From a virus, in the IMG/VR virus record IMGVR_UViG_3300018495_000106: a stretch of 64,000 nt of DNA. One strand, given 5' to 3'. The position numbers and the translations under genes were made by a program. Shown one piece after another: positions 15,802-31,170 of this stretch (its first letter is position 1; each line of letters opens with the position of its first letter). Below the pieces are notes generated by a model that was not told the origin of the DNA, searched no databases, and saw nothing but the letters and a program-made list of their open reading frames with translations.

Positions 15802-15916
15802 AAGGCACATACAGCAAAATGCTTAAAAAGCTAATGCAATAGTCAAACGGTTAAGACATTACCCTTCCACGGTGAAAGTTGGGGTTCGATTCCCCATTGC
15901 GATTCAGAGGTGCCTT
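15802..15916 (+). ncRNA. ACAGCAA-box structured RNA element A (encloses a tRNA-Gly(TCC)-like cloverleaf)
   Basis: closing stem AAGGCAC/GTGCCTT; box CATACAGCAAA; inner GGTTCGATTCC T-arm. Confidence 0.5.
15833..15905 (+). tRNA. tRNA-Gly(TCC)-like (imperfect acceptor stem; inside element A)
   Basis: D/anticodon/T arms fold; anticodon loop CTTCCAC; 2:71 mismatch. Confidence 0.4.
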
Positions 15917-15933
15917 GGAAATAAAAATTCTTT

Positions 15934-15962
15934 TTGATTTTTTATAAAAAATATGTTATAAT
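15934..15962 (+). promoter_or_regulatory. consensus promoter
   Basis: full consensus including ATATATGTAAGATAAAGAAAG. Confidence 0.8.
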
Positions 15963-16180
15963 ATATATGTAAGATAAAGAAAGCCCTTTAATCTTAGTCG
16001 TAAAGGAAAGACGCGAGTCCGGCCATCGTATTCACTGTGAGTTCCTCTCGTAAGAGGGTTGACGGTAGTAGTGCCCAGCGCAACTGGTGAGTAAACAGGT
16101 CCGAGGGTATGAATAGGTGTCACGACCACCTAACTTTCTTTGTCTGATATATGTATTATATAGGAAAGGAGAAATTATCA

Positions 16181-16504
16181 ATGAGTTCTCTTGGTAAGTG
16201 CTATATCTACATTGATGACACGAGATATGACTACTCCAATGTTCCTGATGGAATGGCGTTTGTTCATTGCAAGACTTACAAAGATGCTATTGAGAAACTC
16301 CGTTTCTATATCGAGCATGGAACTAAGCTGATTGTCGACTTCGACCATGACCTTGGTTGCAAGAAGAATGGTTACGATATCGCTAAATGGATTGTCGCCT
16401 CTGGTTATCCGAACATTAGGTTTAGAGTCCATTCTATGAACCCAGTAGGAGCTCAGAATATCAGAGAGACTTTGAGCCACTATGGCTACGAGGAAATCAG
16501 ATGA
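16181..16504 (+). CDS. hypothetical protein (DxDHDLG motif)
   Basis: AAGGAG RBS 9 nt upstream of ATG 16181; long 5' leader from promoter at 15934. Confidence 0.5.
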   Translation: MSSLGKCYIYIDDTRYDYSNVPDGMAFVHCKTYKDAIEKLRFYIEHGTKLIVDFDHDLGCKKNGYDIAKWIVASGYPNIRFRVHSMNPVGAQNIRETLSHYGYEEIR

Positions 16505-16617
16505 AGTTACTTTTCATTTTGGGTGGCTGCGCGATGGCCGCTCTGTGTATCGCCGGAGTTGGTGCAATTCTGGGAATCATCGCGGTTCATATGCATCAAG
16601 CAAGTGAAAATTTTTGA
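16501..16617 (+). CDS. possible 38-aa hydrophobic peptide
   Basis: ATGA overlap with upstream stop; MKLLFILGGCAMAALCIAGVGAILGIIAV... Confidence 0.3.
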   Translation: MKLLFILGGCAMAALCIAGVGAILGIIAVHMHQASENF

Positions 16618-16680
16618 AAAACTGTGGACAGAGTGGGATAAAACCTACTTGACAGTTTTCAAATGATAATACCTAAATAA

Positions 16681-16810
16681 AAGACCGTTACTGCAATTTT
16701 CAAATGATTGCCTGCCAAGCCGGAAGTCGGAGGTTCGAGCCCTTCTCCCCCTGCCAACATAGGGGGATAGCTCAGCTGGGAGAGCGCCGTTAAATCGAAA
16801 AAGCGGTCTT
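16681..16810 (+). ncRNA. ACTGCAA-box element L containing permuted tRNA-like halves
   Basis: closing stem AAGACCG/CGGTCTT; T-arm plus 3' acceptor plus CCA (16722-16754) precedes a tRNA-Ala-like 5' half (GGGGGATAGCTCAGCTGGGAGAGCGCC) whose acceptor strand is a perfect complement. Confidence 0.45.
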
Positions 16811-16898
16811 GTTTTTTATCGCCGGAATTGCTGAAGGAACCATAGAAGTAGGTGGCCTCCAAACCAAGGTTCCTGTTAGGGAGGCTGAAAAAACTTTT

Positions 16899-16927
16899 TT
16901 GATTTTTCTTAAAAAATATGTTATAAT
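16899..16927 (+). promoter_or_regulatory. consensus promoter
   Basis: TTGATT-N17-TATAAT; only a short noncoding stretch follows. Confidence 0.75.
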
Positions 16928-16995
16928 ATTTATAGAAAGTTAAGAAAGAGATTTTTACAAGACCTTTCCAAGATGTTGAAAATAAAAAATCTTTC

Positions 16996-17024
16996 TTGAT
17001 TTTTCAAAAAAAATATGTTATAAT
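16996..17024 (+). promoter_or_regulatory. consensus promoter
   Basis: TTGATT-N17-TATAAT; about 190-nt noncoding transcript follows. Confidence 0.75.
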
Positions 17025-17227
17025 ATATATGTAAGTTAAATAAAGGATATGGAAATTCCACGAAGACTATTGATGTGATGCAAGGAGTTTCGGAGATTCG
17101 AGAGAAAATAGGAAACCATTGAGATTATTTAATGAGCATTAAAGACGACTTCAGCAACTTTTGAGGAAACATTTTTACTGAATACTTGAAACTTCCATGT
17201 TGTCTTGTTCTAAACGAAAAATCTTAA

Positions 17228-17256
17228 TTGATTTTTTCAAAAAAATATGTTATAAT
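17228..17256 (+). promoter_or_regulatory. consensus promoter
   Basis: full consensus; upstream of tRNA-Asn. Confidence 0.8.
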
Positions 17257-17353
17257 ATATATGTAAGATAAAGAAAGAAATCTTACAGGTTGTGCCTTCA
17301 AGCTGTGATTTCAGCGTTGTCCTAAAACAGCGTAGAATATCAGCAACAGATAT

Positions 17354-17429
17354 TGCCCTGTAGCTCAGTCGGTAGAGCACGCGGCTGTTAACCGCGCTGT
17401 CGTGGGTTCGAGCCCCACCGGGGCAGCCA
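17354..17429 (+). tRNA. tRNA-Asn(GTT)
   Basis: cloverleaf; loop CTGTTAA; CCA encoded. Confidence 0.85.
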
Positions 17430-17806
17430 GAGAGTTTGTTTCTTATGGTTCGCTTCTCGATGAATAAAAAGTTGAAAGCCATACGAGGTTTTAGCCGTGA
17501 GTTTCTCGTAAATATAAGCCGCGGCACATAATTTCCTTCTCATATCACAGCAGTTGATATGTGTATGCGAAACAGGTCTTGCCATTAGTACTGAAATAAA
17601 GGAAATGGATGTTCCCTATTGACAAAAAGAATAGGGGTTTGGGAGATGGTACCGCACACCCAACTTCACCCGTGCTAAGAGCCAAAAGCACAAAAAGAAT
17701 ACTGGGAATGCCGTTGGAATGGATTGTAACCTGTCACGAGAGAACAAAACTAATCCAAAGTCGACTTGGGTGACTCTGCCTCGCTACGGCGGAAATGAGA
17801 TTATAT

Positions 17807-29232: not shown

Positions 29233-29323
29233 ATAGTAAGTAAAACAATCGAAAGGGGGAAATACGAATGATGTTTCATCGTATGCATCTCTTCTAAGAC
29301 TCTAAAGTAAAGGAGGTCTTAGA

Positions 29324-29638
29324 ATGAGTCGTTCTTATAAGAAAACCCCTTGGTGCGGAGATAGAAAAGGGAAAGATAAAAAACGCATCGCAAATCATAT
29401 TGTGCGCCAGTACCTTAAAAATCATATGGATTTAGGACTTGCGCCTGGTGACTACAAGAAACTTTATGAGACTTGGGATATCTGTGATTATGGTTGGACA
29501 ATGACTTGGGAGCAATACTGGAGAAGTGAATGGAAATGGTATCGCTGGGAATGTATGATGTGGCCCAACCGAGAGCACAAAGAACCAGATAAAAAAGAGT
29601 GTTATCGCAGATGGTTAAAATTCTACCACAACAAATGA
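29324..29638 (+). CDS. small basic Trp-rich protein
   Basis: RBS AAAGGAGG. Confidence 0.5.
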   Translation: MSRSYKKTPWCGDRKGKDKKRIANHIVRQYLKNHMDLGLAPGDYKKLYETWDICDYGWTMTWEQYWRSEWKWYRWECMMWPNREHKEPDKKECYRRWLKFYHNK

Positions 29639-29645
29639 TTTCAAC

Positions 29646-29674
29646 TTGATTTTTCAAAAAAAATATGTTATAAT
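29646..29674 (+). promoter_or_regulatory. consensus promoter
   Basis: upstream of the tRNA-Gly pair. Confidence 0.8.
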
Positions 29675-29777
29675 ATATATAGAAAGTTAAAGAAAAAGAC
29701 TTTCTACCCCTTTAGTTCCTATCCCCTCTTGATTGTTTGGCATTTTCAACAAAGAGAAAAAGAAAATGTCTTTATAC

Positions 29778-29852
29778 GCGGATGTGGTATAACGGCTATT
29801 ATTTCTGCCTTCCAAGCAGACGACGTGGGTTCGACTCCCATCATCCGCTCCA
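29778..29852 (+). tRNA. tRNA-Gly(TCC)
   Basis: loop CTTCCAA. Confidence 0.85.
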
Positions 29853-29912
29853 CTGGTAAAAACTTGAACTGGGAGCAAACACTAAGTTGCCTTTTTGAAA
29901 CTCCTACGAAAT

Positions 29913-29987
29913 GCAGGTGTAGTATAACGGTTAGTACAGTTGCTTGCCAAGCAACGGGCGAGGGTTCGATTCCCTTCACTTGCTCCA
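29913..29987 (+). tRNA. tRNA-Gly(GCC)
   Basis: loop TTGCCAA. Confidence 0.85.
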
Positions 29988-30053
29988 CGATTATTGCCCT
30001 CGGGGATAATCGAGTGGACATAACTCCACTTTTCAATTATGTATGAAACCTTG

Positions 30054-30216
30054 AGAGCCTAACAGCAAATCTTTAATATACAAATTTTACATCAAGTAAA
30101 TTATCTATTAAAGAAAATGGTAAGTAATTCTTACTAATAGGATGAAAATCTTTTGGGATTTTTGACTTAATGCGGGGCGCTTGAAATGCTTAGTAATTTG
30201 AGCCTGTATGGCTCTC
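30054..30216 (+). ncRNA. ACAGCAA-box element I (closing stem less certain)
   Basis: GAGAGCC...GGCTCTC; box CCTAACAGCAAATC. Confidence 0.3.
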
Positions 30217-30716
30217 GTAAACAGATACGGACTCAAACGAACGCATCTTTCAAGCGCCCCTTTTTCTTCTCTGCAGAGAGAAAATAGAGGTAAGGGTACA
30301 GCTCGCCCCTTTAAATTGTAACATTAACCCCAGCGTCCGCAGGAACACCTTGCTGGGCCCGCAAGCCTGGGATAAGTCTGGTAATGCAGATGTGAGAGCC
30401 TTCTATTTTCTCTAAAAACCAACCTTATGACAAGCGCATGGGAGAAATTCCTTAAGGTTGCCGAAAGGGTGGGAATGTAGTTTTACAGTTGGAACTAAGT
30501 GGCAATCGGCTATGTTGAAATAACAGCCGACCTAAGTCCAAAGATTAGCTTCATTCCCTGTTTACAAACATCGGTAGTGATTCGGTGTAGGGTATCTGAA
30601 TAAACAGTTCCAAAACCTTGCGTAACATCGGTGCGGCCAACTCGAGTACACGGCAAGGCAAGGTGCGTAAGTTAGTGAGTTCTGTGGTCCTTGGTTCGAG
30701 TCCAAGGCTACCGACC
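30160..30716 (+). ncRNA. unassigned highly structured noncoding region ending in a tRNA-like T-arm/acceptor/CCA
   Basis: no ORF; 13-bp stem GCGGGGCGCTTGAAA/TTTCAAGCGCCCC (30172-30268); 3' end CCTTGGTTCGAGTCCAAGG-CTACCGA-CCA, complementary to CGGTAGT at 30572. Confidence 0.4.
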
Positions 30717-30733
30717 AAAAGAGAGGATTTGAA

Positions 30734-30904
30734 ATGAAAATTAACATCGACAAAGAAATAGATAATCATAGATGTCCTGGTATTTATCTCTGCACTGTAG
30801 CAACGACTTGCTATGAGGAATGGGAAAGAGAACATAAATGTTATCTTTGCTGGTTGGCATATTGCAGAGAACATAATATAGAAATTGATTACACGCGCCA
30901 GTAG
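30734..30904 (+). CDS. small Cys-rich protein (56 aa)
   Basis: RBS AGAGAGGA; stop overlaps the tRNA-Lys start. Confidence 0.4.
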   Translation: MKINIDKEIDNHRCPGIYLCTVATTCYEEWEREHKCYLCWLAYCREHNIEIDYTRQ

Positions 30905-30971
30905 CTCAGCTGGTAGTAGCACCAGACTTTTAATCTGGGGGTCGCGAGTTCGAACCTCGCCTGGCGCACCA
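30895..30971 (+). tRNA. tRNA-Lys(TTT)
   Basis: loop CTTTTAA. Confidence 0.85.
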
Positions 30972-31090
30972 TCTCACTGCAGGAGACGGGATGCGTCCGG
31001 TGCCTCGTTAGCGGATCTCCGGATGGTTGGCGCTGTGAAAGTTAAATGTGTCCGCGGTAGGAGCGAAGGTTGGTCGCCTACCATTTATAT

Positions 31091-31170
31091 GTCAACGTAG
31101 TCAAGTGGTTCAAGACGCCGGTCTGCAAAACCGGTATATGTCGTGGGTTCGAATCCCACCGTTGACTCCA
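31091..31170 (+). tRNA. tRNA-Cys(GCA)
   Basis: loop CTGCAAA. Confidence 0.8.

Follow-up and report, generated by a model that had tools for sequence, protein, structure and literature searches.

tRNA gene array

The window analysed here is a stretch of 64,000 nucleotides (nt) of the IMG/VR virus record IMGVR_UViG_3300018495_000106, and all positions are 1-based on this stretch. It carries an array of tRNA genes that extends from 15833 to 31170 (15.3 kb), copies of a repeated element that is predicted to be a base-paired RNA and is here called the bracket are dispersed among these genes, and the array is followed by a gene for a protein predicted to fold like Ro60. The source is probably a phage of ~190–200 kb from gut or rumen Bacillota. 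PHROG matches were found in the window, and cultured phages have homologous gene neighbourhoods. IMG/VR includes many related viral contigs of 100–400 kb, and contigs of 140–176 kb were binned into rumen or gut Bacillota metagenome-assembled genomes; a Bacillota host agrees with the Shine–Dalgarno (SD)-type ribosome-binding sites and the sigma-70-type promoters of the window. A search of the 50,697 deposited phage genomes in INPHARED found no near relative, only matches to single tRNAs.

ARAGORN identified 37 tRNA genes, all on the + strand, and the Rfam tRNA model (RF00005) recovered the same 37/37 at 46–72 bits, well above its gathering score of 29, together with a 38th match at 26348–26464 (117 nt, 38 bits). 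A preliminary description made from the sequence alone had counted about 38 co-oriented tRNAs here, in agreement with both programs, and had allowed that automated scanners might discard most of them as pseudogenes; the two agree on 37/37. It was also right that many include an encoded CCA, which was found in 35/37. The two exceptions, at 15833 and 20469, are AT-rich, also lack the AUAU leader described below, and lie inside bracket elements. The anticodon counts that had been given (CAT four, Asp two, Asn two, Gly three, Ser three, Arg two, Gln two, Glu two and Lys two) are correct, though one Gly(UCC), at 15833, and one Asn(GUU), at 20469, of the claimed duplicates are bracket cargo rather than ordinary tRNAs, and in all two or three tRNA mimics had been counted as ordinary tRNAs. 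What had been called six Leu isoacceptors are five anticodons (UAG, GAG, CAA, CAG and UAA) that read all six Leu codons. The remaining 35 genes are canonical and cover all 20 amino acids. They are listed here on the basis of ARAGORN, RF00005 and inspection of the ends for an encoded CCA.

17354–17429, +, tRNA-Asn(GUU), CCA
17807–17891, +, tRNA-Leu(UAG), CCA
18158–18243, +, tRNA-Leu(GAG), CCA
18595–18671, +, tRNA-Asp(GUC), CCA
18840–18914, +, tRNA-Asp(GUC), copy 2, CCA
19020–19095, +, tRNA-Ala(UGC), CCA
19173–19257, +, tRNA-Leu(CAA), CCA
19258–19342, +, tRNA-Leu(CAG), CCA, abuts tRNA-Leu(CAA)
19607–19681, +, tRNA-Glu(CUC), CCA
19939–20014, +, tRNA-Glu(UUC), CCA
20015–20090, +, CAU tRNA, initiator-like (U1:A72, A11:U24)
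20091–20167, +, CAU tRNA, initiator-like (C1.U72 mismatch, A11:U24)
20560–20635, +, tRNA-Phe(GAA), CCA
20891–20984, +, tRNA-Ser(GCU), CCA
21083–21173, +, tRNA-Ser(GGA), CCA
21614–21688, +, tRNA-Thr(GGU), CCA
21810–21885, +, tRNA-Lys(CUU), CCA
22248–22324, +, tRNA-Arg(UCU), CCA
22460–22536, +, tRNA-Arg(ACG), CCA
23719–23795, +, CAU tRNA, Ile2-like (C4:G69, C5:G68)
24130–24207, +, tRNA-Pro(UGG), CCA
24278–24354, +, tRNA-Ile(GAU), CCA
24946–25021, +, tRNA-Val(UAC), CCA
25695–25772, +, tRNA-His(GUG), encoded G-1, AUAU leader abutting G-1
25853–25928, +, tRNA-Gln(UUG), CCA
26105–26180, +, tRNA-Gln(CUG), CCA
26798–26874, +, CAU tRNA, elongator Met by default (C11:G24, without Ile2 marks)
26875–26950, +, tRNA-Trp(CCA), CCA
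27884–27969, +, tRNA-Tyr(GUA), CCA
28409–28498, +, tRNA-Ser(UGA), CCA
29147–29232, +, tRNA-Leu(UAA), CCA
29778–29852, +, tRNA-Gly(UCC), canonical copy, CCA
29913–29987, +, tRNA-Gly(GCC), CCA
30895–30971, +, tRNA-Lys(UUU), CCA
31091–31170, +, tRNA-Cys(GCA), CCA

The four CAU tRNAs that had been claimed are at 20015, 20091, 23719 and 26798, and the one said to have a C1:U72 mismatch is that at 20091. Bacterial initiator tRNAs have no Watson–Crick 1:72 pair, an A11:U24 pair, and three G:C pairs at 29–31:39–41, while tRNA-Ile2 has a lysidine-modified CAU anticodon on an Ile-type body (C4:G69, C5:G68) and needs TilS. Judged by these determinants, which are general background, the tRNA at 20091 (C1.U72, A11:U24, 2/3 of the anticodon-stem G:C pairs), which also matches the four-copy Escherichia coli tRNA-Met gene at 76.6%, and that at 20015 (U1:A72, A11:U24, 1/3 of these pairs) appear to be initiator-like. 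The top E. coli matches of the tRNA at 23719 are annotated as tRNA-Ile and both C4:G69 and C5:G68 are present, suggesting an Ile2-like tRNA. No homolog of the tRNA at 26798 was found in E. coli, and it was assigned as elongator Met by default.

Leader, codon coverage and promoters

Directly 5' of the mature end, the window tRNAs share the motif A(-4)U(-3)A(-2)U(-1), each position being conserved at 65–78%, and in 608 unique tRNAs of the related contigs the corresponding values are 62–74%. No signal at a fixed distance further 5' than -4 was found in either set. The motif tracks the mature end, as it abuts the encoded G-1 in tRNA-His, and because it does so and is confined to -4 to -1, it should be a processing signal and not a promoter. 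A promoter role for the 'TAT' motif, either T7-like or leaderless with a +1 start, was considered and rejected; there is information only at -4 to -1, and sigma-70-type promoters are found elsewhere. Bacterial RNase P is reported to work best on A(-2)U(-1) and U(-1)/G(+1) and to be strongly inhibited when the proximal leader pairs with the 3' RCCA (PMC10731613). The AUAU leader is unable to pair with the encoded RCCA and thus fits the published specificity of RNase P.

If standard wobble is allowed and U34 wobble is extended for the Ala, Pro and Val boxes, 58/61 sense codons can be read by the set, and the unread codons CGG, ACG and ACA are used 0.1, 2.5 and 7.4 times per 1000, respectively, in 36 phage genes. 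Hence, the tRNA set is tuned to the codon usage of the phage itself. The array is of a known kind, a phage tRNA array, though an unusually complete one.

A phage-wide promoter, TTGAYT-N17 (TG-extended)-TATAAT-ATATATGTAAGAT, is present in 29 near-identical copies in the window (e.g. at 527, 645, 2320, 5503, 8656 ... 60810), all on the + strand. One promoter class thus seems to dominate, and the sigma-70 that the phage encodes at 38480–39505 may be what reads it. The 12/29 copies that lie in or beside the array are listed below, and they divide it into a series of short units mixed with ~17 small open reading frames (ORFs) preceded by an SD sequence.

14730–14758, +, promoter copy, TTGAYT-N17(TG)-TATAAT
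15746–15774, +, promoter copy
15934–15962, +, promoter copy
16899–16927, +, promoter copy
16996–17024, +, promoter copy
17228–17256, +, promoter copy
19431–19459, +, promoter copy
23807–23835, +, promoter copy, 12/12 consensus
26968–26996, +, promoter copy
29002–29030, +, promoter copy
29646–29674, +, promoter copy
32003–32031, +, promoter copy 5' of the Ro60-like gene

Bracket RNAs

The bracket follows the pattern 5'-AAGRCNN-(2–5 nt)-[AC][AT]GCAA ... NNGYCUUG-3', the internal motif being mostly CAGCAA. It was surveyed in the window and 160 related loci (referred to by L numbers where they need to be told apart), where the 5' motif was found 130 times on the + strand and four times on the - strand. 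Pairing between the two ends was examined in a way that presupposes none, by taking elements with any downstream NNGYCUUG and recombining the 5' and 3' parts of different elements. Complementarity at all three variable stem positions was found in 112/130 elements, while the recombined sets gave 10.9 +/- 3.1 and reached a maximum of 22 in 1000 permutations, and 20 covarying combinations were seen. On this covariation, we regard the bracket as a real base-paired element, previously uncharacterised.

The window includes 13 brackets, all within 15802–29139, and there are none in the other 49 kb. Over the survey set, 74/141 brackets end no more than 12 nt 5' of the next tRNA and 61/145 start 10–50 nt after a -10 box. 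Given their position beside tRNAs, processing of the neighbouring tRNAs would free the brackets as discrete RNAs. The window copies are as follows.

15802–15917, +, bracket, cargo a whole AT-rich CCA-less tRNA-Gly(UCC)-like module (ARAGORN 15833–15905), 27 nt after a promoter -10, same arrangement in L095
16681–16811, +, bracket, cargo a circularly permuted mimic of tRNA with T arm, acceptor helix (7 bp, loop G-CCA-ACAU) and D arm, matching Rfam YrlA weakly
17142–17207, +, bracket, short cargo without tRNA-like module, one G.U in the stem
19910–19932, +, minimal bracket hairpin (23 nt), AAGACCUG-CGGCAA-CAGGUCUUG, 6 nt 5' of tRNA-Glu(UUC)
20438–20554, +, bracket, cargo a whole AT-rich CCA-less tRNA-Asn(GUU)-like module (ARAGORN 20469–20542)
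20986–21075, +, bracket, AT-rich cargo, directly 3' of tRNA-Ser(GCU) and 7 nt 5' of tRNA-Ser(GGA)
24036–24122, +, bracket, 7 nt 5' of tRNA-Pro
24369–24520, +, bracket, long cargo (152 nt)
24558–24615, +, bracket, T-arm-like cargo
25574–25690, +, bracket, cargo a circularly permuted mimic of tRNA with T arm, acceptor helix (7 bp, loop G-CCA-UUAAUU) and D arm, conservation in L161 94%
25775–25841, +, bracket, short cargo, between tRNA-His and tRNA-Gln
27016–27188, +, bracket, 173 nt, 19 nt after a promoter -10, in the 5' untranslated region of the PD-(D/E)XK gene
29045–29139, +, bracket, T-arm-bearing cargo, sub-threshold Rfam tRNA match at 29062–29121, 7 nt 5' of tRNA-Leu(UAA)

tRNA-like cargo

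The sequence enclosed by the bracket stem, here called the cargo, varies. In the window it is absent, an AT-rich hairpin, a T arm only (24558 and 29045), a whole tRNA lacking CCA, or a permuted tRNA mimic. The permuted form was recognised by duplicating each bracket element in tandem and submitting it to ARAGORN. A tRNA spanning the junction was found in 39/127 doubled brackets, compared with 6/1270 random segments, 0/1270 shuffled sequences and 0/127 reverse complements. In these elements the 3' half of a single tRNA is encoded 5' of its 5' half. A separate parser recovered the order T arm, acceptor 3' strand, short linker, acceptor 5' strand and D arm, with an acceptor helix of 6–7 bp, in 43/127. 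Both permuted copies in the window, 16681 and 25574, have a 7-bp acceptor helix closed by N-CCA and a short A/U-rich linker. No bulge-helix-bulge (BHB) splice motif was recognised in these two, and a stem running into the bracket stands in place of the anticodon arm, so that joining the termini would not restore a 7-nt anticodon loop.

Three sequences were found in which a related module appears to lie inside a tRNA body of normal arm order. The 38th gene (26348–26467, +), which has an AUAU leader, an acceptor stem, D and T arms, and CCA, carries where the anticodon arm would stand a 48-nt module that consists of a covarying hairpin, then CWGCAA, then a second hairpin. Between the window copy and the L161 copy, the acceptor stem and the T stem have both changed in a compensatory way, and the hairpin stems, GGUC/GACC and GGUAU/AUACC, which are off the bracket consensus, are followed by CUGCAA or CAGCAA. 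In the L095 homolog alone, the insert has a bracket-type stem closed by a loop and then CAGCAA. A strict regular expression for such closed brackets found none and a relaxed search anchored on the insert found the three copies. On the basis of these three, we read the insert as a closed, degenerate bracket module in un-permuted topology. The 38th gene was also considered as a tRNA-Ile(UAU), which relatives have, with a long variable arm or intron. However, formation of the UAU-type hairpin would compete with that of the D stem, this hairpin is not conserved in L095, and the insert is the CWGCAA module. The compensatory stem changes also led us to reject a pseudogene. An SD sequence and an ORF for a basic protein of 57 aa (26481–26654) come next after the 38th gene.

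Ro60-like protein

The gene that follows the array encodes a protein with DUF2828 and DUF7788/vWA domains, and belongs to phrog_850, annotated 'RNA-binding protein'.

32228–33787, +, Ro60-like protein, starts 1 kb 3' of the array

An AlphaFold (AF2) model built from 37 homologs has N-terminal helical repeats and a C-terminal alpha/beta domain, with a predicted local distance difference test (pLDDT) score of 71; Ro60 proteins consist of a ring of HEAT repeats and a vWA domain at the C-terminus. When this model was compared with the PDB using Foldseek, the best 13 matches were all to Ro60/TROVE proteins over the full length (E 5e-7 to 2e-4), among them Deinococcus radiodurans Rsr, Xenopus and human Ro60, and the Ro60 of Thermus phage phiLo, and were followed only by generic vWA domains. 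Hence, the DUF2828/DUF7788 protein is predicted to fold like Ro60. Homologs in mycobacteriophages are annotated 'Ro-like RNA binding protein', and the DUF2828 family is found in 705 isolated phages that include phages of Bacillus, Listeria, Staphylococcus, Mycobacterium and Campylobacter, and FelixO1-like phages.

The brackets tend to occur where this gene occurs. In a set of 80 AAA-anchored loci, which were chosen without regard to Ro60, 79 have no Ro-like gene within 10 kb and 0/79 have a bracket, including L002 with 30 tRNAs, while the sole locus with a Ro-like gene has seven brackets. Brackets were found in 48/53 Ro-anchored loci with at least five tRNAs. Stronger evidence that the RNA and the protein gene go together comes from Enterococcus isolates and Candidatus Oleincola, in which a protein 37–39% identical to that in the window is preceded by one strict and one variant bracket, 123–170 nt upstream and on the same strand. 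In E. larvae, this locus is in a housekeeping context (dnaB, purA, degV), has a promoter of its own and lacks a tRNA array. Brackets also flank the gene in cultured phages. Bacillus phage Thrax3 (L206) has the strict motif, with permuted tRNA-like cargo in one copy, Listeria phage LMTA-34 (L209) has three tandem brackets, and Mycobacterium phage Nicholas has three, one with permuted cargo.

The Ro-like gene directly abuts a tRNA array in Thrax3, LMTA-34 and the FelixO1-like Escherichia phage wV8 (L207), and in LMTA-34 RtcB is encoded 1.3 kb downstream. Synteny of the Ro-like gene and a tRNA array appears to be general across cultured phages of unrelated hosts. No description of this synteny was found in the literature searched, and searches for permuted tRNA genes in phages and for DUF2828 gave nothing relevant.

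Comparison with known systems

YrlA RNAs, tRNA mimics whose genes neighbour that for Ro60 (rsr) in bacteria and phages, carry the motif GNCGAAN0-1G, and the YrlA of Mycobacterium smegmatis, whose acceptor stem has 7 bp, is cut by RNase P and gains CCA in vivo (Chen et al. 2014, PMC4201824). The brackets resemble them in having an outer stem formed from the termini with a short motif on its 5' side, an inner T arm, acceptor helix and D arm, and a location beside a Ro60-type gene, in phages as well. Using cmscan, the Rfam YrlA model (RF02553) aligned end to end (model positions 1–114) with 16701–16818, but the score was 30.6 bits where 69 is the gathering score, with the outer-stem pairs flagged as non-canonical. 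A bracket of phage Nicholas gave 37.9 bits, the tRNA-like body fitting the model and the outer stem mismatching. The brackets differ in number, with 13 copies per locus compared with 1–4 for YrlA, and in a cargo that is modular (none, a T arm, a whole tRNA, a permuted tRNA with encoded CCA, or the closed version in a normal tRNA body). Their putative partner is also from the DUF2828 family and not Pfam TROVE. As they fail both the Rfam threshold and the Ro-binding motif, the brackets are not filed with YrlA but as a Y-RNA-like class for DUF2828-type Ro paralogs.

The Ro60 of phage phiLo binds two Y-like RNAs encoded upstream (PMC12135203). As in the window, a Ro60 homolog is encoded by a phage with Y-like RNAs (Yrl1 and Yrl2) just upstream, and the phiLo Ro60 structure (9L5Y/9KOP) is among the best fold matches of the window protein. 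However, the phiLo RNAs have a CGAA bulge motif, have no tRNA-like cargo and lie outside any tRNA array.

The tRNA arrays of large and jumbo phages (T4/T5-like, FelixO1-like, Bacillus phages and 'huge phages') are likewise one-strand clusters with small ORFs, a homing-type nuclease gene and an RNA-repair set nearby; TROVE, RlaP and Thg1 have been noted in the RNA-repair gene sets of jumbo phages (PMC7824862), and Ro60 and YrlA in a repair operon that responds to tRNA damage (PMC7790460). The set in the window is unusually complete (20 amino acids, 58/61 codons, two initiator-like tRNAs and one Ile2-like), has the near-universal AUAU leader and encoded CCA, and is interleaved with 13 brackets. 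The tRNA array itself is of a known kind, and what sets the locus apart is the layer of Ro-like protein and Y-like RNAs.

Circularly permuted tRNA genes are found in Cyanidioschyzon merolae, some algae and Thermofilum pendens. Compared by description, they share with the permuted brackets a 3' half that is 5' of the 5' half and a short linker. The brackets differ in having no BHB motif and, in the window copies, no restorable anticodon loop, and in being phage or bacterial elements with a Ro-type partner. Most simply, the permuted brackets are mimics and not precursors of decoding tRNAs.

Interpretation and alternatives

We consider it likely that the region is a composite island in which 35 canonical tRNAs are combined with 13 bracket RNAs that partner the downstream Ro60-like protein. 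The 35 tRNAs, with the ~17 small ORFs, would be transcribed in many short units from the 12 sigma-70-type promoters, host RNase P would cut at the AUAU leader, and 3' trimming would stop at the encoded CCA, making CCA addition unnecessary. The phage would thereby have a tRNA pool matched to its own codons and independent of that of the host, to its benefit if host tRNAs are depleted or cleaved in infection. The completeness of the set, the RNase P-optimised leaders and the encoded CCA fit fast, host-independent tRNA production. The bracket RNAs, which would be freed from the same transcripts as the neighbouring tRNAs mature, may be Y-RNA-like partners of the Ro60-like protein, which is predicted to bind them. 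Given the presence of the Ro-like gene, the bracket RNAs and repair enzymes, the brackets, the Ro60-like protein and the products of the RNA-repair genes probably form a ribonucleoprotein (RNP) that could serve in tRNA surveillance, in repair, or as a decoy.

The preliminary description had seen a repertoire for translation take-over or defence evasion, and this finds partial support. Such a repertoire fits the coverage of 20 amino acids and 58/61 codons with its match to the phage's own codon usage, the downstream Ro60-like gene and RNA-repair cluster, and also reports that phage tRNAs counter tRNA-cleaving defences (PMC10264068, PMC11555353, PMC11464382).

A number of observations weigh against the composite island. 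At the sequence level there is no link to Ro60 or TROVE, as Pfam matches with E<=10 were confined to DUF2828, DUF7788 and a weak VWA_2, and phmmer against PDB sequences gave no Ro60 match, and the fold match rests on a medium-confidence model (pLDDT 71, template modelling score 0.33–0.51). The co-occurrence count is confounded by phylogeny, the Ro-negative loci being more distant relatives, and the strict bracket motif was not found in wV8, despite the Ro-like gene abutting its tRNA array. The bracket motif, AAGRCNN...CAGCAA, is not that of YrlA, GNCGAAN0-1G, and scores of 30.6–37.9 bits fall far short of the gathering score of 69. About 36–39% of the array region has no assignment. Finally, the findings fit a supply role as well as an anti-defence role.

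Were the array simply one for codon compensation, with tRNAs supplementing codons for which the host is poor and the spacer RNAs incidental, a set that mirrors phage usage and leaves unread only codons that are hardly used would be expected, and is found. However, all 20 amino acids and the commonest codons are covered and not a rare subset, two initiator-like and one Ile2-like tRNA are included, and compensation gives no account of the conserved bracket RNAs, the Ro-like gene or the repair cluster. We therefore think this explanation unlikely. It is much harder to credit that the CCA-type brackets (16681–16811 and 25574–25690, and those at L001:3507 and L102:7046) are true permuted or split tRNA genes, in which RNase P opens the N-CCA-AYAU loop and an endonuclease and ligase join the ends, giving a two-piece or ligase-joined chargeable RNA with a free, aminoacylatable CCA for which the Ro60-like protein would be an assembly or quality-control chaperone. 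The 3' half with CCA does lie 5' of the 5' half, the acceptor is 7 bp with an A(-2)U(-1)-type leader at the junction, genes for an RNA ligase, a kinase-like protein and a Thg1-like protein are nearby, and the M. smegmatis YrlA is processed by RNase P and carries CCA in vivo (PMC4201824). Against this, both window copies have a long kinked stem in place of the anticodon arm and joining would not yield a 7-nt loop, many relatives have tight acceptor loops without CCA, neither a BHB motif nor a splicing endonuclease was seen, and the apparent specificities duplicate canonical genes of the same arrays. If it were nonetheless so, it would be the first case of a permuted or split tRNA system from a bacterium or a bacterial virus.

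The brackets might instead act at the DNA level, as folded single-strand recombination sites of the integron attC kind that reshuffle tRNA cassettes. Array content differs even where the proteins of two phages are 97% identical, the first half of the array being absent from L161, the elements are at cassette boundaries, show a strand bias and form covarying imperfect hairpins of variable length, and a tyrosine recombinase is encoded ~6 kb from the array in Thrax3. Yet a Pfam scan of window ORFs gave no recombinase gene, elements start 14–27 nt after promoter -10 boxes, the cargo is of an RNA type (T loops and tRNA-like folds), and in Enterococcus chromosomes one or two copies are directly upstream of the DUF2828 gene with no tRNA cassettes. 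We regard such a role as very improbable. The explanation to which we give least credence is that the bracket stems are mere processing or termination hairpins (RNase III or RNase E sites, or terminators) between transcription units. Brackets do lie between tRNAs and near promoters, but with only 7–9 bp the stems are probably too short to be RNase III substrates, a U-tract does not consistently follow the stem, terminator-like sites are not enriched (11 found, 15.5 expected), and the invariant CAGCAA, the tRNA-like cargos and the linkage with DUF2828 would be unexplained.

Phage tRNA arrays are now discussed as codon suppliers or as spares against tRNA-cleaving immunity, and this locus adds to many of them a conserved second layer, made up of an adjoining Ro60-like gene and a modular set of tRNA-like RNAs among the tRNA genes. 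If the composite island is the correct explanation, the brackets would be a new Y-RNA class for a large family of Ro60 paralogs of unknown function (DUF2828) and Ro RNPs would be linked to tRNA homeostasis during infection. Annotation would also improve, as the cargo modules are either called tRNAs in error by tRNA scanners or overlooked. Tractable systems for testing the hypothesis exist, since Enterococcus chromosomes and cultured phages of Bacillus, Listeria and Mycobacterium have the same RNA class.

Other spacer features

Canonical tRNAs make up 18% of the array by length, bracket RNAs 9% and SD-preceded small ORFs ~31%. The spacers, which had been described as 100–250 nt long and structured, range from 0 to 1448 nt (median ~260), and when folding was compared with dinucleotide shuffles, 7/30 unassigned stretches had z < -2 (mean z -1.0). 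The stated length range thus does not stand and the structure is there only in part. What had been taken for structured spacers is promoters, small ORFs and the family of Ro-associated tRNA-mimic RNAs, and structure is clear in the bracket RNAs, in a mimic of a 23S rRNA domain and in two tRNA-shaped RNAs. No self-cleaving ribozymes or other known non-coding RNAs came up in the spacers when 15000–32000 was scanned permissively with Rfam. Besides the 38th gene, the following features were noted.

21689–21730, +, acceptor/T-arm-like minihelix of 42 nt, directly after the tRNA-Thr CCA, CGCCUG...GGGUUCGACUCCC...CAGGCG
26226–26310, +, mimic of the 23S rRNA GTPase-associated centre (GAC), H42–H44, 85 nt, in a spacer
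30571–30717, +, tRNA-shaped RNA of 147 nt with an insert of ~65 nt and CCA, missed by ARAGORN and Rfam

The GAC mimic gave a sub-threshold match to the Rfam large subunit rRNA model (positions 1096–1145), H42–H44 being the site of L11, L10 and thiostrepton. About 40 nt are 100% conserved in L161, compared with ~79% for the flanks. There are 17 unique copies, and 14 of the 22 pairs of the consensus fold show compensatory changes. Copies are found in L001:5219–5309, L093:4111, L102:5336, L103:2922, L115:3671, L131:3725, L141:288, L143:1829, L145:671, L149:700 and L161:4519. It could be a decoy for L11/L10, for toxins that target the GAC, or for thiopeptide-type compounds, the last idea being prompted by the YcaO and radical-SAM genes upstream of the array.

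The RNA at 30571–30717 has an acceptor helix, UCGGUAG/CUACCGA, a T arm, a D-like arm and a Trp-like UUCCAAA loop, followed by the insert. Homologs were found in L161:8933–9080 (100% identical), L116 (94.6%), L118 and L119:5700–5847. The flanks in the window and in L116 are unrelated and the Ro-like proteins are only 66% identical; changes in the RNA preserve a palindromic hairpin (CUCGAG to UCCGGA). The RNA is directly followed by an SD sequence and a Cys-rich ORF of 56 aa. It accounts for only the last ~150 nt of a 746 nt stretch (29988–30733) that has no SD-preceded ORF, is 98% identical to L161 compared with 79–92% for its flanks, and folds with z = -3.4. The spacer around the 21689–21730 minihelix has z = -2.3, and no homolog of the minihelix was found in the related loci.

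The stop codons of 36 window genes are TAA (30) and TGA (6), with no TAG. Several relatives include CUA (amber-suppressor-type) tRNAs, and one includes a tRNA with a UUA anticodon (these are among L001:7547, L002:15109, L082:7221, L111:6908, L115:7776, L116:3462 and L081:1109), which suggests stop-codon recoding in parts of this phage lineage. Neither a suppressor tRNA nor a TAG-interrupted gene was found in the window. Recoding of TAG within the window was rejected, as reading TAG as sense extends no real gene, only overlapping frames. The tRNA match at 29062–29121 was considered as a decayed CUA suppressor syntenic with those of the relatives; the alignment is non-homologous and the match corresponds to bracket cargo with a T arm.

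Gene context

Two protein-coding genes within the array and the genes of note downstream are listed below.

22579–23691, +, AAA ATPase gene inside the array (phrog_2376), from Pfam and PHROG
27242–27697, +, PD-(D/E)XK endonuclease gene inside the array
36352–37275, +, RlaP-like nucleotidyltransferase, weak match
37453–38376, +, metallophosphoesterase
38480–39505, +, full-length sigma-70, regions 1.1–4
40157–41065, +, RNase T-family 3'-5' exonuclease
41065–42498, +, RNA ligase-like protein, weak PF09414 match and PHA02142 OB fold
42526–43053, +, AAA_28 P-loop protein, kinase-like
46542–47471, +, Thg1-like 3'-5' nucleotidyltransferase
48313–50805, +, major-vault-protein (MVP)-like protein, MVP shoulder and vault repeats
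59145–60677, Band-7/flotillin protein

An RNA-repair gene set (ligase, kinase-like, phosphoesterase, RNase T-like, RlaP-like and Thg1-like) is thus found 3' of the array, together with SIR2, NAD-salvage genes and PhoH-PIN. The Thg1-like, RNA ligase and kinase genes named in the preliminary description exist, though they lie 10–16 kb 3' of the array.

On the other side of the array, 8708–15739 includes a cluster resembling those for ribosomally synthesised and post-translationally modified peptides (RiPPs), with a YcaO cyclodehydratase, two radical-SAM proteins and small ORFs, and a GC content of 34–36%. In the close relative L161 the AAA gene directly follows YcaO, and the radical-SAM genes and the first 21 tRNAs are missing. 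The MVP-like, Band-7/flotillin and Ro60-like (32228–33787) proteins are encoded inside 30 kb, and such proteins belong to the vault and Ro RNPs in eukaryotes.

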